From positions 1 to 54,605 of the forward strand of contig DAOVET010000009.1 in assembly GCA_030668825.1 (NCBI GenBank): a DNA stretch of 54,605 bases, in the 5' to 3' direction. The DNA is from Candidatus Heimdallarchaeota archaeon. GTDB taxonomy: Archaea; Asgardarchaeota; Heimdallarchaeia; Heimdallarchaeales; Heimdallarchaeaceae. Position 1 is the stretch's first letter. Each line of letters opens with the position of its first letter. The position numbers and the translations under genes are program-made. Below are positions 11,798 to 54,605 of the stretch, one piece after another. The notes under the pieces are model-generated. The model saw nothing but the letters and a program-made list of their open reading frames with translations, had not been told where the DNA came from and ran no database searches.

Positions 11798-13405
11798 CTA
11801 TTTAGATTCTCTTTTGATTAACTCTCTTTTAAGAACTTTACCTGCTGCACTTAATGGTAAAGAATCAACAAATTCGAAAGTTTTAGGGATTTTGTACTTA
11901 GTTATGGATTGCTTGATACAGAATTCTCTCATTTCATCTTCAGTGATTTTTTGTCCCTCCTTAGCAACAATAAAGGCCTTCCCAACTTCACCAAAGTAAT
12001 CATCTGGAACGGGTATTACAGTTGCAAGTGAAACTCCTGGGTGTTTGTAGAGTTCTTCTTCTACTTCTCTGGGATAAACCTTAAGTCCACCAGAATTGAT
12101 AACATCTTTGGATCTGTCAACAATAAAGAAATATCCTTCAGAATCTATTCGAGCTAAGTCCCCTGTTTTTAACCATCCATCTGAAGTAAAAACATTGGAA
12201 GATTCTAAACTTTTACCAAAGTATCCTTTCATAACTTGAGGACCTAAAATGACTATCTCACCAACTTTACCCTCTTCTACTTCATCGAGAGTTTCAGAAT
12301 CAACCAATCGGACCAATGTGTCAATGAGAGGTTTACCTATGGAATTGACAATCGCTTTGCCGTAAGGATTGATATGAGTAACAGGACTACATTCAGTTAA
12401 TCCATAACCTTCCGTAATCTCCACAGATGTCTTTTTCCTGAACTCTTCATGAACTTCTTTGGGTAATGCTGATCCTCCAGAAACGCAAACTTTTAGACTC
12501 TTTAAGTCATAACCCTCTATTTTTAATCGAAGAAGAGCTATGTACATTGTTGGAACACCGTAAAAAGATGTTGCCTTTTCCTCTGCCATTAATTTGAGCA
12601 AGCTCTCTGGATCAAATTTTGGAATTATGATAATCATTTCACCCCTAAAAAGTGGCGCTAGGAAACTGCATTGCAAGCCAAAACTGTGACAAATTGGTAG
12701 AGCTGAAACAACGCAACCAGTAAATTCTTGTGGTATTTCTTTTGCCCATTCATTAAATTGAAGAGCATTTGCGAGAACATTAGAATGAGTTAACATCACA
12801 GCCTTTGCTGAACCTGTAGTGCCACCTGTATAGAGAAGAAATGCTAAGTCTGACGCTTTACTTCTTATTTCTGTTAATTTTTCCTCTTTACTAAGAATGC
12901 TTGACAATAATACTAAATCAGAATCTTGACTTAGAGTGATATCTTCTCCTGATTCTTCAGGATCACTGACAAGAATCTTTGCTTTAAATTGATATTGACT
13001 AACTATTTCAGAAACTCTATCACAAAAAGAGAAATCTGTTATTAAAGCCTTTGATTCAGAGTCTCTTAGCTGAAAAGCAATCTCTCTTTGAGACAATCGA
13101 GTATTAATTAGAGTAACTTTAGCTCCTACTTGAAAAGATGCAAAAATTGAGATAATTATACCAATTGAATTAGGTAGCAATATAGCCACTGTTTCGTCTT
13201 TTTCTATAGAACTTGCATCCAAAAAATAAGCTAATTTGTTGGTCATTTCAATTATATCTTTAGTTTTATAATCCCTTGATCCCTCTTTGAAAAGAATCTT
13301 ATTATCGTCAAAACCTTTTGAAATTTCTAAAAAATATTCGAATACTGATTTATCTGGATAGTTTATTTTCCAAGGCATTCTTTCTCTCCAGCTTGATTCA
13401 CTCAT
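11798..13405 (-). CDS. Long-chain fatty acid--CoA ligase (AMP-binding)
   Basis: LLYTGGTTG, EGYGLTE, WLKTGD, DRSKD, GKVLK. Confidence 0.93.
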   Translation of the reverse strand: MSESSWRERMPWKINYPDKSVFEYFLEISKGFDDNKILFKEGSRDYKTKDIIEMTNKLAYFLDASSIEKDETVAILLPNSIGIIISIFASFQVGAKVTLINTRLSQREIAFQLRDSESKALITDFSFCDRVSEIVSQYQFKAKILVSDPEESGEDITLSQDSDLVLLSSILSKEEKLTEIRSKASDLAFLLYTGGTTGSAKAVMLTHSNVLANALQFNEWAKEIPQEFTGCVVSALPICHSFGLQCSFLAPLFRGEMIIIIPKFDPESLLKLMAEEKATSFYGVPTMYIALLRLKIEGYDLKSLKVCVSGGSALPKEVHEEFRKKTSVEITEGYGLTECSPVTHINPYGKAIVNSIGKPLIDTLVRLVDSETLDEVEEGKVGEIVILGPQVMKGYFGKSLESSNVFTSDGWLKTGDLARIDSEGYFFIVDRSKDVINSGGLKVYPREVEEELYKHPGVSLATVIPVPDDYFGEVGKAFIVAKEGQKITEDEMREFCIKQSITKYKIPKTFEFVDSLPLSAAGKVLKRELIKRESK

Positions 13406-13540: not shown

Positions 13541-16291
13541 TTGTCCCCAGAAGATAGTAGGCGCAAAGAGAGTAAAAAATTAGAGAAAGACTATGATGAA
13601 GAGCTTTCTCAAATTGCGACTAAATATAATATTGAATTTGATAATGATAGAGAAACTCTTTCTATTAATTTAGCTCTAAAAGGACAAGAAGCTTTAACCA
13701 AAGGTCAAATCGAAACAGCAGAAGAAATATGTGATGTACTTTATAATCTCGCAAGTAAGTGGAAAGATGACTTTACAAAAATGAAAACACTACTACTAAA
13801 TGCTCAGATAGCAAACTACAAGGGAGAATCGCAGTTAGAACATCTTGAAAACGCTCTTTCCTTAGCTAAAAAAATCAAAATTATTGATATTGAAATTGGA
13901 ATAAGGGTTCAACTAGCTTTTGATTATTACAAAAGACGAACCTACAAGAAAGTTCTCAGAGAGATTAAGAAAATCCAAAAACATCCCGAGTTTTTCTCTG
14001 AAAATGCAACAATAGTTCTTGAGCTACAATCTAGAACCTATTGGGAAACAGATGAATATATCAAGGGATTTGACTCTACTCTTAAGTGGTTTGACGTTCT
14101 AAAAAACTCTCTAAGAGATGTACATTCGCTTTTTCTTGTTATTGTTTACCTTCTAACTGTAATGAATTCTTTAGATCTCCCATATGCTAAAAAGAAGCTT
14201 GATGAGATTAAGAATAGCATTTCAGGTCTTTTAATAGAATTAGGTTCAGCTTCCCATTTATTTTCAGAAATACTGATAAATATTGATGTTTTGTTTGCCA
14301 AATCCCTTATGCTTGTAGAACCCGAAATCTTGTATCAATTTGCAGATTTACTAATACAATCTTCCAGATGGAATGATGAGGAAAAGTACTTATTTTTGTG
14401 TCAAAAACTGTCAGATGCCTTTTATAATATTAACGACTTTAAAAAAGCTCAAAACTTAATGGAAAAAGCATATCAGTTTGCTAAAGAGAAAAAGTATTCC
14501 GAAATTGAATCTCTTATTAGATATAAAATGACAGAGATTTCCAGTTTGATATTTTATTTTATGTCTTTCAATCCTCTATTTGATCCATTTAGCGCAAAAT
14601 CTATTACAATAAATACTGATGATCTCAAGAAACAGTCGTATTTACAAGTCATGAGCCCCATTACGAATAATTTTCCTACAACTTCTTATTCACAGTTTCT
14701 AAGAATTATCGAAAAAGCTTCATATAGTTATATACATGAAAAATCACTGAAAATCGAAGGATTTACTGTTGAAGAAGAACGGTGTTTTTTCGTTCTTGAT
14801 TTAGAGATAGAAAACGAAAGAATAATGCTTCTTATGAAAGAAGATTTCAAAGTAGATCCTGCAGAATATAAGACATTACACTCAACTTTATCTCCCTATT
14901 ATTCAGTTATTGGTTTATTATCAGATGAAAGAAAAAGTACAATGAACGAAATTGATGAAATAGAAAAAGTTTTACTTAAAGTTCAAAGAGCTATCAATTG
15001 TCCTGCTTCTAAGGCTATTATTTACCTGCCTGAGAAAAATCCTCAACTAAATCTATTCCGATTTTATCTCCAAGAGAGTGGTTTTAGAGATCTTAAAGTT
15101 AAAATCTTGGATTCAGTCTTAAAATTAAAGACTTCATTTGATTTCCTGAAAATTCCTGATATTTTACAAATTTTTCAAGCAGATCCTATAACCATCTTTG
15201 ATTTATCTCTAAGAGATGCTGATAATCTGAACCCATTATCAAAATTAATTACTCATGCTTACGGATTCAATGTATCATCTGAAACAATGCACGATTTCTT
15301 CCAAGCATTAATTGAAGATTTCCTAAAGAGAAGTGATACTAGATTCTGGAAAGATTTTTACTATCAATATGCTTGGGTGCAAACTAAAGGAATATACCTA
15401 TCTCTATCAAATGAGTTCCTTGAGAAGAAAAAAGCTTTAAATGATAAATTGGTTGAAATTGCAAATAAACTAGGTGAGGGAGAGAAAATTTTGGAGAGCC
15501 TATATTATCGAACCTTTATGGGAATTGTTGCTAAGAGTGATAATTTCATGCAAGATTTCGAGGTTCTTAAATCAAAATTAAACGATCATGAAAGCAGGAA
15601 ATTTAGTGTTATATCTAAAATTATCCAGCTTTTTAAAGATGAAAATTTAGATGAGGAGTACAATCTGGTTGAAACTCTTAATTTGCTCTGTGAATTATGT
15701 GAATTCAAAGATTGGGATATTTTATTAGAATTATTTATCTATCTTCTTGGCGAGTTACAGGAGATTAAACCTCTATTTGAAATATGTAAAGAGAGAGATG
15801 TTAAAGACAGTGGAATATATCTGTACCTGCACCTAATTAAACACTTAATCAAAATTGAGAGACATGATTCAGCAAGTGAACTGCTAAGTTGGGTTCTCAA
15901 TACAATAAATAGTCGGAAAGAGAAGTTTCACTTCTCTAAACACATTTGGGATTATCTATTTGTTACAGCAAACATGTATATGTATTCCCTTACTAGTGAA
16001 GTTCCTGATGAAACCTTAAAGAAATTTGGTGTGGATAAAAATGACGTTATTCGAAGCTTATTAGATAAAAAAGAATGGATTACTGATCCTTTATTCCTTG
16101 TTGAAATTCTTAACGATTATATCTTAACATTACTTGATAAATCGAACTTCTCTGAGGCTGAAAAACATTATCGCTGGGTTGAGCAATTAATGTTCTATTA
16201 CTGGGATATATTCACGAATGAAAATAATAAAGATTTACTGAAAAACGTTAATGAAATTAAAAAGAAAATCGAAAGTCAACACTTAATATAA
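13541..16291 (+). CDS. Large hypothetical protein, alpha-solenoid/TPR-like ends
   Basis: 916-aa ORF with helical-repeat patterns; no catalytic motif recognised. Confidence 0.6.
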   Translation: MSPEDSRRKESKKLEKDYDEELSQIATKYNIEFDNDRETLSINLALKGQEALTKGQIETAEEICDVLYNLASKWKDDFTKMKTLLLNAQIANYKGESQLEHLENALSLAKKIKIIDIEIGIRVQLAFDYYKRRTYKKVLREIKKIQKHPEFFSENATIVLELQSRTYWETDEYIKGFDSTLKWFDVLKNSLRDVHSLFLVIVYLLTVMNSLDLPYAKKKLDEIKNSISGLLIELGSASHLFSEILINIDVLFAKSLMLVEPEILYQFADLLIQSSRWNDEEKYLFLCQKLSDAFYNINDFKKAQNLMEKAYQFAKEKKYSEIESLIRYKMTEISSLIFYFMSFNPLFDPFSAKSITINTDDLKKQSYLQVMSPITNNFPTTSYSQFLRIIEKASYSYIHEKSLKIEGFTVEEERCFFVLDLEIENERIMLLMKEDFKVDPAEYKTLHSTLSPYYSVIGLLSDERKSTMNEIDEIEKVLLKVQRAINCPASKAIIYLPEKNPQLNLFRFYLQESGFRDLKVKILDSVLKLKTSFDFLKIPDILQIFQADPITIFDLSLRDADNLNPLSKLITHAYGFNVSSETMHDFFQALIEDFLKRSDTRFWKDFYYQYAWVQTKGIYLSLSNEFLEKKKALNDKLVEIANKLGEGEKILESLYYRTFMGIVAKSDNFMQDFEVLKSKLNDHESRKFSVISKIIQLFKDENLDEEYNLVETLNLLCELCEFKDWDILLELFIYLLGELQEIKPLFEICKERDVKDSGIYLYLHLIKHLIKIERHDSASELLSWVLNTINSRKEKFHFSKHIWDYLFVTANMYMYSLTSEVPDETLKKFGVDKNDVIRSLLDKKEWITDPLFLVEILNDYILTLLDKSNFSEAEKHYRWVEQLMFYYWDIFTNENNKDLLKNVNEIKKKIESQHLI

Positions 16292-45545: not shown

Positions 45546-46604
45546 CTAACCCTTCTTCAGATATGGATTAGCCTCTCCACAATCGCCACAGAAAGCTGCA
45601 TCATCATCTAGCTCTAGACCACATTTAATACAAAACATCTTCTTTGGCAAAGCGGGATCATCTAGTAATATTTCTTCAATAGGTTCTTGTGTTTGAGAAA
45701 CTGGCTTAGCTGGGGGTGGTGGTGCAAATCCTCCGAATAATCCTCCCCTTCTCCCAAGCATTCCTCCTCCTTGTTGTCTGGCTTCAGCCCGTTGAGCTTT
45801 AGCTTCTTCTATCCTTTGAAATAGCTCTTCAGGAATTTTATCCAGAGTTGCAAAAGCTCTTCGTAGATACCAGAAACCTAACACAATCATGACAAGATTC
45901 CCCATACTAAAGAAGTATTGAACCCAGAGAAGAATTTGAAATCCTTCTTCAATTACTAGCTTTTCACCTACATAATACGCATAGGTATCCTGAGGAATAA
46001 TGGTTTCTATGGTTAAATAAATGAATAACAATGCAAAACCTAAAGGAAGTGATAGTTGTCCTTTATAGATATTTCTTCTTTGAGTTGCATAACTATCAAC
46101 TGCTGTTTTAAGTTGATAGAACCCAAAGGTGAAAGCTGCAGCTGAAACGATATAAGTGATATTTACAGACAGTAGTCTTAAGGGATTTGAACTAACCAAA
46201 AGCCCTGTTGCATAAAAAATACCCGATATTCTTGATAGCAGTAGTCTTAAGTGATCTGAACTAACCAAAACTCCTACCGAATAAAAAATAGTTAATATAT
46301 TTGATACAAGGAGAATTATGGCAGCTGAACCAATTATTATACTTGTAAAGAATATAATTTTGTTTTCTTCTTCCTTATGGAATAAAAATAAACCATATGC
46401 TAACCATACCAATGCTAGGCCTTGTAATAAATTAAGTGCACTGTCGACATATAAAATTGCAGGACCACTACCTAACAAATAAATAAACATACTTATCATC
46501 ATTGTTAAAACATAAATCAAAGATGAATTTGTAATATGTTTTCTGGTTGTATTTTTTATACCTGTTTCTGGTTGTAGCTCTGTTTCACCCATCATCCTAA
46601 TCAT
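45546..46604 (-). CDS. Multi-TM membrane protein with C-terminal zinc ribbon
   Basis: TM helices, G/P-rich linker, FCIKCG...FCGDCG. Confidence 0.8.
   Translation of the reverse strand: MIRMMGETELQPETGIKNTTRKHITNSSLIYVLTMMISMFIYLLGSGPAILYVDSALNLLQGLALVWLAYGLFLFHKEEENKIIFFTSIIIGSAAIILLVSNILTIFYSVGVLVSSDHLRLLLSRISGIFYATGLLVSSNPLRLLSVNITYIVSAAAFTFGFYQLKTAVDSYATQRRNIYKGQLSLPLGFALLFIYLTIETIIPQDTYAYYVGEKLVIEEGFQILLWVQYFFSMGNLVMIVLGFWYLRRAFATLDKIPEELFQRIEEAKAQRAEARQQGGGMLGRRGGLFGGFAPPPPAKPVSQTQEPIEEILLDDPALPKKMFCIKCGLELDDDAAFCGDCGEANPYLKKG
46170..46290. repeat. In-frame 69-bp tandem duplication (23 aa)
   Basis: CAGTAGTCTTAAGnGATnTGAACTAACCAAAA at 46170 and 46239. Confidence 0.85.
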
Positions 46605-46696
46605 ACCTTGTGAATGTATTATTTAAATTTGTGGAGTTATGATATTTTTGATTCGAGGAAAAAGGAAAGTATATAAGTACTCCCAAATACTCTTTT

Positions 46697-47266
46697 TTGA
46701 TGAGACTTTCATCCTCTTTATCACTGGTAGCATGCTTGACGGCGTTCTTTAGTTTATTAACACCAGTTTTCTTTGATAAACAAGGATATGCTCAAACTTG
46801 GATTGATATTCAAGAATCTCCTCCTCTATGGATTTTTATAATTGCCACTTTCTTAGTAGCTGCTCATGATATCAAATGGTTTGAAGGGATAAAATTTATT
46901 CGTAAATCAGATTTCAGATTATTTAGACTTCTTTTGGTTATTATTGGCTTTTTGATGGCTTTTGCTATGGAATTGTCTGTTAACGTTCGATTAACTCCTT
47001 ACATTTTCTGGCAGCAGAGTCTTTTCTTCCAATTACCTTACAGATCTACAGTTATGCTTCAATATAATATCCTGTATTATGTTTTTCAGAAAGCAATTGT
47101 AGAGACCGTAATATTCAGAGTTAGTATAGCGTATCATTTAATTCGTCTCTGTCGATTAATTTTGATTTTTGTATTCATCTTCACTATTCTGGAAAAAAGT
47201 CCTCGAAAATCAAGGATAACGACAGAACAGGTTTATAGGGATTATCTGGGAAAATCTCAGCCTTGA
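46697..47266 (+). CDS. Membrane protein, hypothetical
   Basis: About 4 hydrophobic segments. Confidence 0.6.
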   Translation: MMRLSSSLSLVACLTAFFSLLTPVFFDKQGYAQTWIDIQESPPLWIFIIATFLVAAHDIKWFEGIKFIRKSDFRLFRLLLVIIGFLMAFAMELSVNVRLTPYIFWQQSLFFQLPYRSTVMLQYNILYYVFQKAIVETVIFRVSIAYHLIRLCRLILIFVFIFTILEKSPRKSRITTEQVYRDYLGKSQP

Positions 47267-47318
47267 TGCAAATAGTTTTTATTTCAGTTAATTTCTTGAT
47301 AAATAAGCAAGAAACAAT

Positions 47319-48389
47319 TTGATAAGCATGTCCTCTCCTTTATTTGTACCATATATAGCATTATTAGTCCTAGATGAGACTGGAATGACTCTACGATGCA
47401 CTAATCCTATTCCTGATATTTCAAATGAAGAAATAATAGGAATAGGAAACTTCTACAGTCCTGTAGTTTCAGCATCATCTCCTCATCTAGAAATATATGG
47501 TCCTTTACCTATTCCACATCATGAGAAATATCACTTGTTAATAGTTACTTTCAGAAAGTATGATTCATTAGTTTATGATCCGCGAACCAAAGATAAGAAT
47601 GTACTATCTTTTTGTCAATTGCTTATTTTTTACAAAAAAGAATGTGATGAAAAGGTAAAATTCGGTCACAGTCAGATATTCACAACTGTAGATGTTTTTC
47701 TTCAAGAATTTCAAGATGTTGCAGAAGTGAGAGATGAAGAGCTGCTCAAATTGAGTGAAATATTAATTGAAAATGTTATTCTTGATGATCAGATTAAATC
47801 TAAAAGCATTGAGGATATTGTAAGAGATATTGCTTCGCGGTTTAATACAATACAACAAATATCTAACCTATTAAACCGTAGAACAAAAATTGGAATTATT
47901 TCCTCTGATTCATTGTCATATAATCTGATTATTCAATCTCTTTTCCACTATCAGAATATAGATTTCATCTATCAGCTAGATAGAAACGAATTCATTACAA
48001 GAATTGATACTTACTTCATGAGGATAGTTTTAACTTTGCTTTTTGATTTAGAAATGATTGAAGGTATAGATTTCTTCAGGGAAATGGATTATTATGTGTA
48101 CATAGCTTCTTGTGAAGAAGAGGGAAGTTGTCAAAAGCACATCGATAACATAGACACTATGTTTAAACAAGACAGTAATGCTAAAATCTTTTTTGTGACC
48201 ACAGAAAGAACAGAACAATTATCCTTGGAAAAAAAGAAGTTTTTATTTCAAGAAAGTGAAAATAGGAAGAATCTTAAACTGATGATTTCAGTTGGAGATG
48301 TATTTAGAACACTTGATAATGCAATATATCTAATCTTAAGTGATATACTGGAACTGAGAAAAATCATCTTGAGTCAGAGCAAGGGATAG
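47319..48389 (+). CDS. Hypothetical: longin/uDENN-like N-domain plus degenerate GTPase-like C-domain (paralog of 19804)
   Basis: LLVLDETG, YGPLPIP, VYDPR; KIGIIS...YYVYIAS...KIFFVTT. Confidence 0.5.
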   Translation: MISMSSPLFVPYIALLVLDETGMTLRCTNPIPDISNEEIIGIGNFYSPVVSASSPHLEIYGPLPIPHHEKYHLLIVTFRKYDSLVYDPRTKDKNVLSFCQLLIFYKKECDEKVKFGHSQIFTTVDVFLQEFQDVAEVRDEELLKLSEILIENVILDDQIKSKSIEDIVRDIASRFNTIQQISNLLNRRTKIGIISSDSLSYNLIIQSLFHYQNIDFIYQLDRNEFITRIDTYFMRIVLTLLFDLEMIEGIDFFREMDYYVYIASCEEEGSCQKHIDNIDTMFKQDSNAKIFFVTTERTEQLSLEKKKFLFQESENRKNLKLMISVGDVFRTLDNAIYLILSDILELRKIILSQSKG

Positions 48390-48479
48390 TTTGTTCTAAT
48401 CTGGAATCACAGCGATTAGCTGTGCATTTAACCCCAACCTACTCCCAACAACTGGACCCATATAACCTATGAATGACTT

Positions 48480-48593
48480 GCTAATTTTCATCCAAAGTCA
48501 GAAGTTGTTAGTTTTGGTGATGTTCATCGATTTATCGTGGGTAATGAAGATACAATTGTTGAAAATATTGAACGTTTCATCAAAGCAATTTAG
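48480..48593 (+). pseudogene. Orphan 3' fragment resembling an LLM-class oxidoreductase C-terminus
   Basis: RFIVGNEDTIVENIERFIKAI* resembles IVGTPDEVIEKIEEFIKAG. Confidence 0.45.
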
Positions 48594-48628
48594 AATTTAT
48601 AATAAGTTTTTTTTCAATGAGACAAACT

Positions 48629-49363
48629 CTAATTCTTGTTAACTCTTTTTTTCATCCATTCTCTTATTTCTTCAAAGAGCTGGTATCGACCTGCATCTTT
48701 GGGAATGACATGACCACCTTTGTCTATCCAAACTAGAGTTTTATCAGTTGAGTTAACCTTTTTGTAGATGTATTCAGCATGATTAGAAGGAACACTTGGA
48801 TCCTTCTTACTCTGAATTACAAGTATGGGTACCTCGATTTTAGGGACTGATATTTTCACTTCTCTAAGAAGTTTGTAAAGCTGCTTAATACTTCTTATGG
48901 GGTAGTACCCATAGCTTTTGTGAGTTGAGAGTGATTCCAGATCTTCCCATCCTTTTTCCCTTGTTCTATGCTTAGGATAAATTAAGCCTAGAAAAGGGAC
49001 TGCAACAATAAGATACATTCTCCAATCTGGCGACTTATATGGTGCAGCCATTGGTATTATTCCTGCTAAATCACTATTTCTTGCTCCCAATACTAAAGTA
49101 ATAGCTGCGCCCATTGAGAGACCGCAGATATATACCTTCTCAAATACTGCTTTAAGTTCATTTAGCTTTGCTTGTGCATAGTCTATCCATTCAGTCCAAT
49201 TGTTTTTATTGAGATCTTCAAGTGATGTTTCATGTCCTGGAAGAGTGATATTTTCAACAAAGTAATGTTGTTCTCTAAGATAAGTAGCTAGAGGTTCCAT
49301 TTCGAAATGCGTTCCAGTAAATCCGTGTATTAGAAGAAAGCTGATTTTTGAATTTTCACTCAT
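48629..49363 (-). CDS. Carboxylesterase (alpha/beta hydrolase, Est30/YvaK-like)
   Basis: IHGFTG, GLSMG nucleophile, DPSV, GHVI triad. Confidence 0.93.
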   Translation of the reverse strand: MSENSKISFLLIHGFTGTHFEMEPLATYLREQHYFVENITLPGHETSLEDLNKNNWTEWIDYAQAKLNELKAVFEKVYICGLSMGAAITLVLGARNSDLAGIIPMAAPYKSPDWRMYLIVAVPFLGLIYPKHRTREKGWEDLESLSTHKSYGYYPIRSIKQLYKLLREVKISVPKIEVPILVIQSKKDPSVPSNHAEYIYKKVNSTDKTLVWIDKGGHVIPKDAGRYQLFEEIREWMKKRVNKN

Positions 49364-49500
49364 ATTAGACTAAAAAAACACTAATTAATAAGAATTGTTG
49401 ATTAGAATTCACATCCAATCATTAAGTAGAAAAACCTTCCTTAACTTTTTAACTCTTTGTTACAAATAAATACTATGAAGTAATCTTGATAATTAAATAT

Positions 49501-49680
49501 TTACATGAAGTCCTCTAATCCTGATTGTTTCTTGGTTCTCTGAAAATCCTTCAGTTCCTCATCCTTCTGATCAATGAACCATTATTTAATCAGCTTAGAT
49601 TCAGGATCAACAACAGATTTAGGTATCCAAATAGGATTGTCAGTTAAACCATCAATGATAACCATAAAGAATGAACCCCA
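49501..49680 (-). pseudogene. Orphan 3' fragment ending in a PIP-box-like motif
   Basis: ...NPIWIPKSVVDPESKLIK*WFIDQ...KKQSGLEDFM*; internal stop at 49582-49584. Confidence 0.6.
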
Positions 49681-49793
49681 TAGAACAGAGCCCTTTAATT
49701 ATTGGGCTTTCTTAAAACTTAACATCTACATTGCTCTGTCCATCAGAATCAGTTTTTTTTCCAGTAGAATTCTGGTGTGAGATACAGGGATTC

Positions 49794-50057
49794 TTATGAA
49801 ATTATTATTGTTTTCACTAAATTGGTTTGAACTAGGAAATTTTCAAGGTCTGTATTGACGTTATAATAAGTGAGCACAAAATTAATTGTTGAATCTACAA
49901 TAAATGAAGTGTTGAGAAAACCTCTAATTTGATAATTACCTGAGTTTTGGAGAGTAAAAGAGTAACCTTGTGATTTATTTGAGATTAAGTATTCCAATTT
50001 TGGTTCTTCTGCAATGATTTCAATATAACTAAATAATCTAAATGTGTCAAATAACAA
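49794..50057 (-). pseudogene. Probable fragment of a beta-sandwich surface protein
   Basis: Beta-strand-rich (SFTLQNSGNYQIRG); no signal peptide or clear start. Confidence 0.3.
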
Positions 50058-50060
50058 ATT

Positions 50061-50421
50061 ATTGTAAATGCTACAAGTCGTTCCTTAAAGTTACCTCTTG
50101 TAGAACTAAAACTTATTCCATCTTTCAATTCATATATTCTACTAGGAATACCAATTTCTGATAGAAGCTTTTTGCAAGAGTTTACTACTTTTGGATATTT
50201 AGATCATATAGCTTTTACTCTATTTCCATTTATTTTGAATCTTATTGGTCTTATGAAAATATTCTTATCAAGATGTGAGTTTTGCTTAATGAAGTCGTTC
50301 CAATCATATAATAATTCCGCAACTATTTCATCAGAGTGACCTCCAGCTTGCGATCTAGCAACTTTGATTGGATTAAGAGTTTCTTCATCAAAGAAAACAA
50401 AAGGTGAATAGTACTGGCAAT
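50061..50421 (-). pseudogene. Interrupted ORF remnant with a LAGLIDADG-like segment
   Basis: ~120 codons, one TGA at 50204-50206; SKYPKVVNSCKKLLSEIGIPSRIYE. Confidence 0.35.
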
Positions 50422-51477
50422 CTATTGTAATTCAATAGTTTTTACCCTCTTTTTTTTCCTATTTAGTATTACTACTGCAAAAATGAGAGTGGGTAAACCA
50501 ATTACTAAAAATGGGAAGTCAGTATTATTACCAGCATAAGCAAGCGCTATGAAATTATTAACATACCAATTATTAGCAATGATCGTGTCAAAGACTTTAT
50601 GAACTATCTTCATTTCATCTTCAGTGAAACCAGACTTATAATAGATTTTAATATCTATCACTCCTAAATCCCAACATTCTGAATAAAAAGAATATGTTTC
50701 ATTAAAAACTAATGGTTCTGAAAGATTAAGTAGAGGTAAATCTTCCTCTTCAGCCCAATTTGATTCTGGCCAATTCATGCTAAGATTATTGATCCCAAAT
50801 ATCACATTTTTTAGTGAGAGAAGGCTAGAAATTAGAATGTCATGAAATTCGTTATTTTCTATCCATTTTTCACCTTCATTTATGAATTTTGATGCCATAA
50901 TCCCATCCTTTGATTGGAAGTCTAAAATAGTCACATTACCACCAAGATGGCTTTCATTAAATGTCGAAAATTCTGTGTGATCAAGTGGTGCTAGATATTC
51001 TGCAAAAGCATATCCAAACTCAGAACTATCTGCAGGGATAATTGAAGGAACTACTTCTTCTACGTACCACCAGCGGTCATTATCAGAGTCAATTATGCTA
51101 GACAGTTGTTCATACATAGTTTTATCATCATGAGAGACATTTGCTAACAAGAAGTCTACTTTACCAGGTAACACGGTATCATTATAATTATAGACTAAAA
51201 TGTCATCTAAACCAGAGATTTGATGGGTTAACCAATTCAAATCCTCATTAATTCTATTTATTAGTATTTCATTCTCCTCATGTGTTTGACTGGTTTCATT
51301 GAAAATTAATAGTAGTGCTGTAAGATCCTCCTTTGTCAATCCATTTAGTTCTATAGAAATTAAAGAGTAGATAGATGGAATATCCATACTATTCACTGTA
51401 TTTATATTAGGGACAGAGAAAGAAGAAATAAGTAAGAACATGAACAAGCAGATGAGAGATGTTTTTTTCTTTTTCAT
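50422..51477 (-). CDS. Secreted acidic protein with C-terminal membrane anchor (island cargo)
   Basis: Signal peptide; TDFPFLVIGLPTLIFAVVILNRKKKR. Confidence 0.8.
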   Translation of the reverse strand: MKKKKTSLICLFMFLLISSFSVPNINTVNSMDIPSIYSLISIELNGLTKEDLTALLLIFNETSQTHEENEILINRINEDLNWLTHQISGLDDILVYNYNDTVLPGKVDFLLANVSHDDKTMYEQLSSIIDSDNDRWWYVEEVVPSIIPADSSEFGYAFAEYLAPLDHTEFSTFNESHLGGNVTILDFQSKDGIMASKFINEGEKWIENNEFHDILISSLLSLKNVIFGINNLSMNWPESNWAEEEDLPLLNLSEPLVFNETYSFYSECWDLGVIDIKIYYKSGFTEDEMKIVHKVFDTIIANNWYVNNFIALAYAGNNTDFPFLVIGLPTLIFAVVILNRKKKRVKTIELQ

Positions 51478-51496
51478 TATTCGTCTTCCTATTTAA

Positions 51497-52630
51497 TTAT
51501 GGCGGATGACATAAGTAAAGCGCTGTCTGCAAATCGTTGAAATCCATTGGATTTTGATCCCAACCTGGATAGTTTGTGGTAATCCAATTATAAGCGGTAT
51601 CAAACGCTGTGTCTGAATCAGAATAATAATTATAGAACCTTTGACACATTTTTCGTAGAAAAGGGCTATACATATGATCTATTCTGTATGCTAGTGACCA
51701 ACTAGGATCATAACCCATTAGCTGGTGCCAAGCACTTTCGTCCCACTCACAAGCTACCATCACATGCTTTTTGTTGGTTAATTCTTTTCCTCTGTAGAGA
51801 AACCCTTCTGAATGGCAACTATCCATGATATATATTAAGTTATCAGTTTCTAAATCAGTTAACCAACCTTTCAGTTCGATAGCAGCAACACCCTTATAGT
51901 AAGGTGTCCACCCTAATTCATGAAACCATGTGGTTGTATGAGAATGTGTCCACGCATCCCAATTTGGTGGTGCACCCACAGCATGTCCATGTGCTGAAAA
52001 TAGAACTACTACAATGTCTTTTTGTTTTTCTTTTGTATCTAAAGTATCTAATATACTAATTACATCATCATCGTCCCAATCATAATGAGTAGCGAAATAA
52101 CCAGGGATGTATTTCGCCCTATCGCTTAGAAGCATATCTCTAAATGGTTCTATATTACTTCTCCATCTATATTGCCAAGAATATTCATCATCGAAATCAA
52201 ATCCAAAACCAACGAAATGACACATGGGTGGATCTACTGTGAATGATACACTATCCATAACAACACTTTGAGTAATTATGCTAAAAGGACTAGGACCCCC
52301 ACTGACTGAAACTGAAACAGTAAAAGTATGTAATCCTCTACCATACTTATCTATAAAGTTCTTTGCATCATATTGAATATTTGCTCCTACATGATGGAGA
52401 GAGTAATCTAACTGTCCATCAATATATGTTTTATATGATTGATATGAACCAACGATGATGAATTTGAAAGTGATATAATCACCGTTTAAGAGACCGTTAA
52501 ATTGTTGACCATTAGTAGGTTTCTGAATAGTGGTTGATGTAGCTCTTACTTCTTTAATGAGAATTGTGCTACTAAGAAATACGATTGTAAAAAAAACAAA
52601 AAAAGCTAATCTATATTGCTTTTTTTTCAT
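51497..52630 (-). CDS. Secreted caspase-hemoglobinase-fold (clan CD, C13/C14-like) cysteine peptidase with N-terminal Ig-like domain
   Basis: Signal peptide; VVLFSAHG and YIMDSCHSEGF His/Cys dyad; GGAGG SD. Confidence 0.78.
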   Translation of the reverse strand: MKKKQYRLAFFVFFTIVFLSSTILIKEVRATSTTIQKPTNGQQFNGLLNGDYITFKFIIVGSYQSYKTYIDGQLDYSLHHVGANIQYDAKNFIDKYGRGLHTFTVSVSVSGGPSPFSIITQSVVMDSVSFTVDPPMCHFVGFGFDFDDEYSWQYRWRSNIEPFRDMLLSDRAKYIPGYFATHYDWDDDDVISILDTLDTKEKQKDIVVVLFSAHGHAVGAPPNWDAWTHSHTTTWFHELGWTPYYKGVAAIELKGWLTDLETDNLIYIMDSCHSEGFLYRGKELTNKKHVMVACEWDESAWHQLMGYDPSWSLAYRIDHMYSPFLRKMCQRFYNYYSDSDTAFDTAYNWITTNYPGWDQNPMDFNDLQTALYLCHPP

Positions 52631-52648
52631 AGTTTAATTTCCTCCGTC

Positions 52649-52686
52649 TATACTGTTTTTCAATTTTGTTTTCTACAAACAGTATA
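52649..52686. promoter_or_regulatory. Perfect 10-bp inverted repeat between TATA and SD of the peptidase gene
   Basis: TATACTGTTT-N18-AAACAGTATA. Confidence 0.5.
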
Positions 52687-53024
52687 CTGCTTGTACAAGG
52701 TTTATTTATATATTTAAACTTTACCTACCACTTAGTACTTCCTCAATGAGTGCTACCATGTATCACCTCCTTCTGGATGTTGAAGCCATATACGGATTCG
52801 AGGTGAATTTCCCAGTTTAAATAGTGGTTAGTTCTGTCGAAAGTTCTATTAGACTATGTAATTATTAGAGGAAGGAAAAGAGAAAAATCAATACTAGAGG
52901 AAGAGAAAGCCAGATTTTTGTTGGAGAATAAAAGTCGAAAAGAAGGATCGACTTTGAAAGCTTGTCTTTAAAAGTAGATTACTAGTACTGAAATTTCAGC
53001 CTTCTAAACTCGTTTTTATTACTA

Positions 53025-53109
53025 AAGTTGTTTATAAGAAACGACTGTATTGAGAAAAGTCGTCTAAAAGATACGATGTAGTGATATTAAGTCGTCTTGT
53101 GGACACGAT
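53025..53109. repeat. Three 21-bp quasi-palindromic units at exact 32-bp period
   Basis: AAGTTGTTTATAAGAAACGAC (53025), AAGTCGTCTAAAAGATACGAT (53057), AAGTCGTCTTGTGGACACGAT (53089). Confidence 0.8.
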
Positions 53110-53111
53110 CT

Positions 53112-53210
53112 GTCTGTGGTAGTATGTTCTTGCTACCTGGACAACCTCCAGTTCCAGCTGCTAATAAAATGGACTATACAGAAGATGGAGAAATTATAGG
53201 GTTAAACTAA
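53112..53210 (+). pseudogene. fhs: Orphan 3' end of formate--tetrahydrofolate ligase
   Basis: [32 protein letters not shown] matches the Fhs C-terminal pattern (LTGDIMTMPGLPKxPAAxxIDxDEDGxIxGLF). Confidence 0.78.
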
Positions 53211-53541
53211 CCCTACTTTTACCATTTTTAAAAACTCCAATTCTGGAAGATATATTCTATTATATCTCCAATTTTTTTACTCTCTTGTTTGTTTAGTATC
53301 AACCTACAAAATTCGTTGATTATTTTATCTACATAGTATTGAAATAGGTTATTGTGACTTGGAAACCCTGAAGTCTTAATATTAAAAACTATATTATGTC
53401 ATTTATAGTCAAGAAAATACAAATAAGATTCATAGACATCAATAATTTCCCCTGCAATTCAATAACTAAAATATTTTCAAGTTCCTGTTCAAACTGTTGT
53501 TATACCTTTTCCCACTCTTTTTCTTTTTTTCATAATCTTTT

Positions 53542-53805
53542 CTAGGATAGTGCAGTCATCAAGATAATACTTGTAAGTCTCTCGTATTTTTCTTTTAAAC
53601 TATTTAATTTTGTTTGAGCGTAATTAATCCAATCTGTCCAGTTGTTTTTATTAAGTTCTTTAATAGTTGTTTCATGACCAGATAGAGTGATATTTTCAAC
53701 AGCATAACCTTGTTTTTCAAGGAATTCAGCTAAAGGTTTCATTTCAAAATGTGCTCCAGTAAAACCATGTATTAAAAGAAAGCTGATTGTTGTAATCTCA
53801 CTCAC
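53542..53805 (-). pseudogene. Truncated 5' duplicate of the carboxylesterase gene
   Basis: 52/77 aa identical to the 48629-49363 N-terminus; ends before GxSxG. Confidence 0.92.
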
Positions 53806-53836
53806 AAAATAATGAATAATAACTGATTAATAAAAA

Positions 53837-54523
53837 TTGTTAATCATATTGACTCTAAACTTATTAGAAAGAAGAAAAACTCATAAACAAGGAAGAAGAT
53901 TAATTATTGTGATAGACCCTAGAATTTTCTGGACCTTAATAGGTATACTCTCTTTTCTAGTTTCCATAAGAGCTATTATTACTATATACCGCGGAATAAG
54001 ATATGAATATTTGCAAGTTTCAGGTTTTGCTCTACTTATATTATCTTTAACTCTAACTGGATCATATTCTTATATCTACTATGTAGGAAATGAAGAAATC
54101 GTCTACTTATCATTAAGTTTAACCTTAGCCCTTCTTTCAGTGGTCCTCATTTTAGCGGGTACTCTATCTTCTAGTCGACGATGGGTTAGACGAAGAGGGA
54201 CAGAAAATCTGAATAGATTCACCAATCTCCTTATCTTTGCTTACATCCGAAATCCAGTATCTTTAGGTATGATGCTTATTTCAATATCAATGATATTCTA
54301 TATTCATTCATTATTATCTAATATACTTGCAGGTGTTGCTTTTTTGTTTTTCATGTTTTCATCGTTTGAAAAAGACACTTTTTTCAAAGAGCTGTATGGA
54401 TATCCATACAAAGTATATTCAAAAACAGTTCCAAGATTCAACTTTGTTCATGGATTAATTAAAGCGATTATTGTGAACAAAAAAGCTCAAGATGAGAATA
54501 GAGGTAACCTCTTAGATTCATAA
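53837..54523 (+). CDS. ICMT/PEMT-family membrane methyltransferase-like protein
   Basis: YIRNPVSLG, FEKDTFFKELYGYPYKVYSKTVPRF; start probably downstream of the annotated one. Confidence 0.7.
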   Translation: MLIILTLNLLERRKTHKQGRRLIIVIDPRIFWTLIGILSFLVSIRAIITIYRGIRYEYLQVSGFALLILSLTLTGSYSYIYYVGNEEIVYLSLSLTLALLSVVLILAGTLSSSRRWVRRRGTENLNRFTNLLIFAYIRNPVSLGMMLISISMIFYIHSLLSNILAGVAFLFFMFSSFEKDTFFKELYGYPYKVYSKTVPRFNFVHGLIKAIIVNKKAQDENRGNLLDS

Positions 54524-54605
54524 GAAAAAGATATTTGGGCTATTCTTAATCTACTTAATTATATCAGTAAGTATAGCCGGGCATATATCGGTTATACCAT
54601 CAATT

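Follow-up and report, generated by a model that had tools for sequence, protein, structure and literature searches.

A stranded copy of a dispersed element, with putative phased operators of a cas1 promoter, beside an orphan fhs 3' end in a Heimdallarchaeota contig

Why does an array of three similar sites stop exactly where a displaced 3' fragment of the fhs gene begins? The window, by which we mean the whole stretch of 54,605 nucleotides that was analysed, is all of contig C116 of assembly G000 (2.76 Mb in 138 contigs, 33% G+C, completeness 90.6%; genomes are labelled Gnnn and contigs Cnnn). Because its genes include an A-type ATPase operon, Ras-family GTPases, and a PCI-domain protein, the window can be taken as chromosomal DNA of an Asgard archaeon. 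The stretch was matched by 19 listed rows from 10 studies, 14 of the rows with at least half of its words and 4 flagged as possible sources. C116 probably continues into C18, as positions 54480-54605 at the contig end overlap C18:29943-29818 with 99% identity over 126 nt. A 69-nt unit also occurs twice in tandem at 46170-46306 (79% matches, score 176), in or beside an ORF at 45546-46604. A first-pass annotation had proposed that the array and the fhs fragment form an att site, or a Tn7-like terminus, of an uncharacterised element that targets fhs. The features of this region are listed below.

52802 to 53017, plus strand: upstream module, 85% identical to a paralog in G000:C109 and 78-80% identical to sequences in G037:C33 and G039:C221
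52816 to 52823, plus strand: TATA-like box within the module, about 20 nt upstream of box A
52836 to 52854, plus strand: dyad box A within the module, GTCGA-N9-TAGAC
52931 to 52955, plus strand: hairpin or dyad box B, AAAGTCGA-N9-TCGACTTT, the inverted repeat of the first-pass annotation
53013 to 53017, plus strand: T-run (T5) at the end of the module
53025 to 53109, plus strand: three 21-nt boxes with a 32-bp period, each with a dyad GTCGT/GTTGT-N9-ACGAC/ACGAT
53110 to 53235, plus strand: orphan fhs 3' end, with codons for amino acids 531-561, a stop codon at 53208-53210, and about 25 nt of conserved post-stop sequence
53229 to 53365, minus strand: 3' fragment of the gene convergent with fhs, which is the native downstream flank of fhs; this gene has at least 545 codons in G018:C218

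The three 21-nt units described in the first pass are real. They lie at 53025-53045, 53057-53077, and 53089-53109, start 32 and 32 bp apart, and are 76% identical to the middle copy. The originally proposed unit pattern matched three times in the window compared to 0.00 matches expected, and three or more matches arose in 0 of 100 shuffles; across the 2.76-Mb assembly, the only matches were the same three. As 32 bp corresponds to three helical turns, the boxes lie on the same face of the helix. Box instances from six aligned copies of the element gave the consensus AAGTCGTYT-N5-RA-N-WCGAC, with a dyad core of GTCG-N11-CGAC, and the geometry GTCGW-N9-WCGAC occurs five times per element, in the three boxes and in two module dyads (52836-52854 and 52934-52952). 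All seven copies that we identified have three boxes at the 32-bp period, and these copies are otherwise 70-80% identical. Pairwise identity over six copies was 78.4% in the boxes (741/945), 56.9% in the spacers (182/320), and 62.3% in the module body (1324/2125); the G011 copy, which was discovered later, was left out of these counts. The difference between 78% and 57% comes from few (6-7) and related copies, and is thus a description rather than a statistic over independent samples. Two marks by which phased operators are recognised can be read from these alignments, namely two or more similar dyad boxes at integral helical turns, seen in all seven copies, and boxes more constrained than the intervening DNA, seen over the six related copies.

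Where else does this sequence occur, and with what neighbours? The array and the inverted repeat at 52931 are parts of one non-coding element of about 310 nt (window 52802 to ~53112), whose module has a sharp left edge at 52800/52802. The inverted repeat is present as first described but belongs to a separate conserved upstream module and is not linked to fhs, and the module paralog at G000:C109:8689-8905 (85% identical) has no array. Over nine copies of the box B hairpin, 84.7% of cells were paired and 3 of 8 pairs had changed on both sides, giving a covariation of 0.316 compared to a shuffled mean of 0.166, a value reached by 2 of 500 shuffles. The symmetry of box B is kept through these double changes, with G037 as the one copy that lacks the 5' arm.

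Six further array-bearing copies with the same boxes and period were found in four other genomes of the same family (G037:C33, G039:C221 twice, G039:C313, G034:C39, and G011:C181), and none is beside fhs. G034 and G011 belong to the genus of the window, and G037 and G039 to a second genus. A scan for two adjacent units in one genome per species gave exactly one other record, a Heimdallarchaeota MAG, in which the module and three boxes lie between a gene for an FAD oxidoreductase and a PTE gene fragment, again without fhs. An order-wide DNA search of 47 genomes added three copies, all in G039 (same genus as G037), and the copies in G034:C39 and G011:C181 were reached by following the downstream ORF. 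Exact-pattern scans with two patterns gave 0 matches in metagenome contigs and 0 in viral contigs; diverged copies escape exact matching of this kind. The copies stand in unrelated contexts and abut truncated genes, including an Amidohydro_1 C-terminal fragment in G034 and a PTE 5' fragment in G037, an arrangement that looks like mobility. A methyltransferase gene in G039:C221 is enclosed by two copies in inverted orientation (L077 845-1084 and 2537-2777; 70% identity), whose cas1 sides face outward.

The fuller copies reveal what once lay beyond the third box. In G034, G011, and G039:C313, the order is a TATA-like box, the module of ~200 nt with its two GTCGA-N9-TCGAC dyads, the T-run, the three boxes, ~58 nt, TTTATATA, 24 nt, and an ATG start codon. 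In these fullest copies, TTTATATA is a second TATA-like box, placed between box 3 and the ATG of a cas1 gene. A third mark of phased operators, a core promoter alongside, can accordingly be read from the sequence in G034, G011, and G039:C313, and the window copy has no promoter. The 129-aa ORF that follows the element in G034:C39 corresponds to the N-terminal third of Cas1 (PF01867, E 1.6e-9, 37.8 bits against a cut-off of 22.3, model positions 9-106 of 283) and has weak Cas1 matches in NCBIfam. The same relic ORF is present in G039:C313, where it is cut by the contig end, and in G011:C181, where it is frameshifted; the 62-aa ORF of G039:C313 had no Pfam match on its own, and only its 129-aa ortholog in G034 matched. 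The link to cas1 holds in three copies, with a 37-codon remnant in a fourth. All relatives of this relic found in 83 genomes of the class are fragments or contain stop codons, and searches of the protein collection (longer proteins), of viral contigs, and of the 83 class genomes gave no full-length relative. PolB, cas2, cas4, HNH, and other hallmark genes were not found near any copy, no TIR or TSD was recognised around any copy, and neither cas1 nor a CRISPR array was found in G000.

What, then, is the fragment to the right of the array? In a tblastn comparison with the resident Fhs (C27:16869-18551), 53112-53204 matched amino acids 531-561 (31 aa, 90% identity, E 1.6e-11), within an ORF at 53097-53210. 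The Fhs C-terminus that had been reported after the array is therefore genuine, although 31 codons match rather than 32. DNA homology to fhs begins at 53110 and extends ~25 nt beyond the stop codon at 53208-53210, and the flank at 53229-53365 is 86-88% identical to G012:C41:25011-25267 and G018:C218:451-706, which follow a full fhs gene in G012 and a contig-cut fhs gene in G018. We also considered the array as decayed fhs coding sequence and rejected this idea, as homology in a four-way alignment does not extend upstream of 53110. The joint at 53109/53110 is spanned, with 0-1 differences, by contigs from four runs that belong to four studies, and the joint between array and fhs is therefore real and not an assembly chimera.

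Comparison with the other copies shows what was lost at this joint. After box 3, the fuller copies continue with YTGAATG(T)..., and G039:C221R matches the window up to 53108. The first 10 nt at the joint, CTGTCTGTGG, are exactly those of fhs and match the continuation of the G037 element, CTGAATGTGG, at 8 of 10 positions. The G037 element is itself cut ~12 nt further on, where it is joined to the PTE 5' fragment at a GTGGAA overlap; a full PTE gene lies 2 kb away, leaving a 175-nt direct repeat around the oxidoreductase gene and the element. Secondary joints of two different kinds thus occur just after box 3, one to fhs in the window and one to PTE in G037. The fhs fragment of G013:C19 has the same start codon as that of the window and an unrelated left flank. 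Taken together, the alignments give good support for reading the window array as a stranded, truncated copy of a dispersed element, and its adjacency to fhs as secondary.

Intact fhs of G000 lies at C27:16863-18566, on another contig than the window fragment, and three more fhs 3' copies lie downstream of it (C27:8602-8727, 14236-14300, and 14852-14913), for a total of 5 in G000. A 126-nt fhs 3' query matched 19 of 25 genus genomes, with at least two matches in 8; on this point the first-pass reading stands, as fhs 3' duplicates do mark a recombination hot spot in the genus. The extra copies are 0.6-6 kb apart downstream of the full gene in G001, G007, G012, G013, G008, and G036, end between stop+25 and stop+48, and start at clustered codons (~275, 484-494, and 529-548). 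Cargo between them includes NosD/beta-helix proteins, a copper ATPase with a TRASH regulator, a beta-lactamase-like protein, and transport proteins; among 33 proteins of the islands and their neighbourhoods, none showed a recombinase domain. The variable island downstream of fhs (G000:C27:8600-18566; L015, L017, L018, L019, L020, and L040) holds 2-5 serial fhs 3' copies. Thus, fhs is a hot spot for repeat-bracketed cassettes, and no integrase-based element was seen there.

Could the boxes nevertheless mark the end of an element that inserts itself at the 3' end of fhs, as arm-type or transposase sites? The array abuts the left edge of the fhs fragment, exactly where a P arm would be placed, on its right side the fragment runs on into the sequence that natively follows fhs, and the genus has many fhs 3' copies. 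Against this reading, 0 of the 6 other array copies adjoin fhs, the array is missing from all of the other fhs 3' copies examined in the genus, which number more than 20, and matches to the array pattern were no more frequent in the remaining 24 genomes of the genus than in controls. In intact copies, moreover, the array is internal and is followed by a promoter and cas1, and the TGT on the minus strand before box 3, which had been offered as a terminus, is not conserved in alignments of the other copies. G000 has no match to PF00589, PF16795, or rve (PF00665); its three resolvase-type matches are on other contigs. PF00589 matches occur in 13 of 25 genus genomes, never on a contig holding an fhs copy; the remaining 12, including G000, have no PF00589 match, and G000 lacks even an Xer-like recombinase. 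Paired attL/attR sites were not found at intact fhs; C27 has serial fhs copies without the array, and the window fragment, being on a different contig, has no partner site in cis. No rve transposase of the TnsB/TniA type was found near any copy, G000 has no inverted copy of the unit pattern that might serve as a second end, and the inverted pair of G039:C221, in addition to being only 70% identical, has the wrong polarity for terminal ends. A full-text literature search found nothing that was relevant, judged by title or abstract, on fhs as an integration site. We regard the reading as an fhs-targeting integrative element or Tn7-like terminus as largely refuted, and consider it very improbable. 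Parts of the first-pass proposal survive in altered form. An uncharacterised dispersed element does exist, and searches beyond the window yielded the six additional copies, but no rve gene was seen near them; the integrase-family gene carried by the fuller copies is solely a cas1 N-terminal relic. Likewise, relatives do have cassettes next to fhs, but these are repeat-bracketed, lie downstream of the gene, and contain neither the array nor a recombinase.

How did the element and the fhs fragment come to lie where they do? Both are within a larger insertion, whose parts are as follows.

49160 to 49402, minus strand: left copy of a 243-bp direct repeat, covering the 5' end and upstream region of an intact alpha/beta-hydrolase gene (48629-49363)
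49400 to 53601: mosaic insertion of 4.2 kb, absent at this locus in G012, G009, G013, and G018
49495 to 49669: multi-copy repeat within the insertion
49648 to 50065: C20-like piece within the insertion
50055 to 50403, minus strand: internal fragment of the fhs-convergent gene, within the insertion
50422 to 52630, minus strand: two genes for secreted proteins, within the insertion
53368 to 53501: piece resembling G012:C135, within the insertion, alongside the element and the fhs fragment with its flank
53602 to 53844, minus strand: right copy of the 243-bp repeat, which shares 76% identity with the left one, with the hydrolase promoter and a 5' fragment of the gene (ORF 53542-53805)

In G012, G009, G013, and G018, sequences corresponding to 46600-49399 join those corresponding to 53602-54605 directly, through a single alpha/beta-hydrolase gene. 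The insertion is a patchwork of at least seven pieces with relatives at different places, and both of its joints are bridged by contigs of independent runs. The right copy of the direct repeat is of an allele type seen in G013, and each of the two copies resembles a different allele from the genus. Excised or alternative forms were not found among the contigs of the four runs, an assay in which rare variants are dropped. The ~170-nt repeat at 49495-49669 has copies on C1, C20, and C49 and about 7 in G013, shows raised contig depth in all four runs, and may be a miniature mobile element. The two convergent-gene fragments (50055-50403 and 53229-53365, minus strand) are in an order that is circularly permuted compared to G018:C218. 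The secreted-protein gene pair (50422-52630, minus strand) has no Pfam match and recurs at ~90% identity in other contexts in G013:C44 and G008:C52/C2/C85; judged by this recurrence in G013 and G008, it appears to behave as a mobile cargo pair. Cassettes bracketed by direct repeats of 90-250 bp were seen in three unrelated cases (window 49160-49402/53602-53844, L067 7147-7322/9313-9490, and L099 10720-10811/~12575-12667), in which the bracketing repeats are the hydrolase 5' end, the PTE promoter and 5' end, and the 5' part of the module, respectively. This arrangement points to circular DNA that was inserted through homology (Campbell-type) rather than by a site-specific recombinase.

We are left with the function of the boxes. 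The explanation that we favour, and to which we give about an even chance, is that a dispersed element has left a stranded copy in the window, and that its boxes are putative phased operators for a dimeric regulator of the cas1 promoter. For the GTCGW-N9-WCGAC boxes themselves, a role as operators of the cas1 promoter is the most likely one, by analogy with known archaeal regulators. This reading is favoured because the boxes are dyads, recur every three turns, precede a TATA box, and are better conserved than the DNA between them, all of which fits archaeal Lrp-type regulators; these are described in PMC2995911 as dimers that bind cooperatively to regularly spaced sites with centres two or three helical turns apart and wrap the DNA. 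Such regulators act on sets of two or three boxes. From these similarities, we infer that one dimeric DNA-binding protein would assemble cooperatively on the phased boxes and control the cas1 promoter. The window copy is severed right after box 3 and joined to a translocated fhs 3' end, presumably by illegitimate recombination at the 10-nt microhomology, and the joined piece is part of the 4.2-kb patchwork that entered the alpha/beta-hydrolase gene between the 243-bp direct repeats. The window copy is probably inert, having no promoter and lying in a genome with neither cas1 nor CRISPR. Across the element copies, no regulator gene shows a consistent linkage. Several observations, this one among them, count against the operator reading. 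The unrelated contexts and truncated neighbours of the copies are suggestive of mobility. Further, cas1 of this lineage is a relic wherever it was found in the 83 class genomes; the putative target promoter may therefore be dead everywhere, which makes continued selection on the boxes puzzling. In addition, the breaks in the window and in G037 fall within ~12 nt of each other after box 3, a clustering that a recombination site would predict and that a plain operator model would not.

The main rival takes up these clustered breaks: a recombinase would bind the boxes as subterminal sites of a mobile element that encodes Cas1, either casposon-like or otherwise new, and DNA would be cut and joined just after box 3. 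Such an element would account for the Cas1-family gene linked to three copies and left as a 37-codon remnant in a fourth, for dispersed and non-syntenic copies in 5 genomes of 2 genera, for a sharp left edge beside truncated genes, for the two joints within ~12 nt after box 3, and for the inverted pair around the methyltransferase gene in G039:C221. PMC8730458 moreover describes many Cas1 homologs in Asgard genomes, some of them possibly on novel mobile elements, and mobile-element signatures are reported for CRISPR-Cas loci of Heimdallarchaeum in PMC8813620. However, homology among the copies runs ~100-150 nt beyond box 3 into the promoter and cas1, making the boxes internal, and they lie ~220 nt from the left edge. 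The G039 pair, with its cas1 sides outward and 70% identity, has the wrong polarity for terminal inverted repeats; there is no PolB, cas2, cas4, HNH, TIR, or TSD near any copy, and no intact cas1 of the lineage was found. We consider this rival unlikely. Its fullest form, in which the module, boxes, and cas1 would be what survives of one end of a Cas1 mobile element not yet described, with the boxes serving as integrase sites and strand transfer occurring after box 3, seems distinctly unlikely. Were it true, the window (fhs) and G037 (PTE) would preserve two joints of the element to host genes, and the same machinery may also drive the repeat-bracketed cassettes at fhs and elsewhere.

The element might alternatively act as RNA, with the module forming a small non-coding RNA that runs from the TATA-like box to the T-run and the boxes forming downstream hairpins. 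A TATA-like box ~20 nt upstream of box A, the T5 run at 53013-53017, the module hairpin with changes on both sides, and, on our reading of the alignment, G-U pairing kept in some box variants are consistent with transcription of this kind. Predicted folding of the array is nonetheless unremarkable (z -1.89 for the plus strand, -0.97 for the minus), consensus folding of the module gives a covariation term of +0.46 and no support overall, consistent pairing in the boxes is limited to a core of 4-5 bp, and there is no Rfam match; no tRNA or known RNA family was found in the window. A role as RNA is accordingly improbable in our estimation. Finally, the array could be functionless DNA, a decaying local triplication that has been carried about by rearrangements. 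Its surroundings are indeed a junkyard of gene fragments, and the associated cas1 is dead wherever it is seen, but all 7 copies retain the three-box layout and the 32-bp period, with boxes clearly better kept than spacers, and we find this account quite improbable. Operators of a cas1 promoter remain our preferred role for the boxes.

No new fhs-targeting integrative element or Tn7-like terminus remains at this locus. What remains is a small family of conserved cis-elements, in the archaea closest to eukaryotes, that is tied to one among many Asgard Cas1 lineages still in want of an explanation. If the boxes are operators, then they provide a handle on the regulation of an Asgard cas1 (or Cas1-solo) gene; if they are recombinase sites, then they are the mark of a new Cas1-based mobile element. 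The recurrence of cassettes between 90-250-bp repeats of host gene ends (fhs 3', hydrolase 5', and PTE 5'), with no recombinase, also bears on how Asgard archaea gain genes.

How do these boxes compare with known systems? Regularly spaced repeats near cas1 recall CRISPR arrays, but a CRISPR array or remnant was rejected: 21-nt units with 11-nt gaps differ from repeats of at least 23 nt with spacers of similar or greater length, and in G037 and G039 the genuine CRISPR repeats, which are 30-38 nt long with a period of ~70, are unrelated to the boxes in sequence. In the attP and attR sites of tyrosine integrases, arm-type sites lie beside the core, and duplicates of gene 3' ends accumulate at hot spots such as tDNA islands and tycheposon-like arrays. 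The window resembles this pattern in that repeated sites adjoin a 3' fragment displaced from its gene, as does the genus in its serial fhs 3' copies downstream of fhs, but here an integrase is absent, the array is not seen together with fhs copies elsewhere, and the fragment has no partner site in cis. Transposon ends of the Tn7 and Mu type have three or four transposase sites, and the window likewise has three similar phased sites near a joint with foreign DNA. It has no rve-family gene, conserved TGT, second end, or short target duplication, however, and homology in fuller copies runs past the supposed end. Casposons and Cas1-solo elements, as treated in PMC8464041 and PMC8730458, resemble the element in having a linked Cas1-family gene and dispersed copies. 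Casposons are characterised in the former by PolB, TIRs, and a 13-15-bp target duplication, none of which was found here, where at most 110 N-terminal residues of Cas1 remain. The Lrp-type operators of Ss-LrpB and Ptr2 differ from the boxes in that the sequence GTCGW-N9-WCGAC is apparently unrelated to theirs, no regulator gene is linked, the cas1 target is known only as a relic, and the window copy has lost its promoter. Cooperative binding of dimers with DNA wrapping is the established mechanism in those systems, as set out in PMC2995911, and it is with their operators that the boxes of this element share their layout of several imperfect dyads on one face of the helix, with centres three turns apart, upstream of a core promoter.
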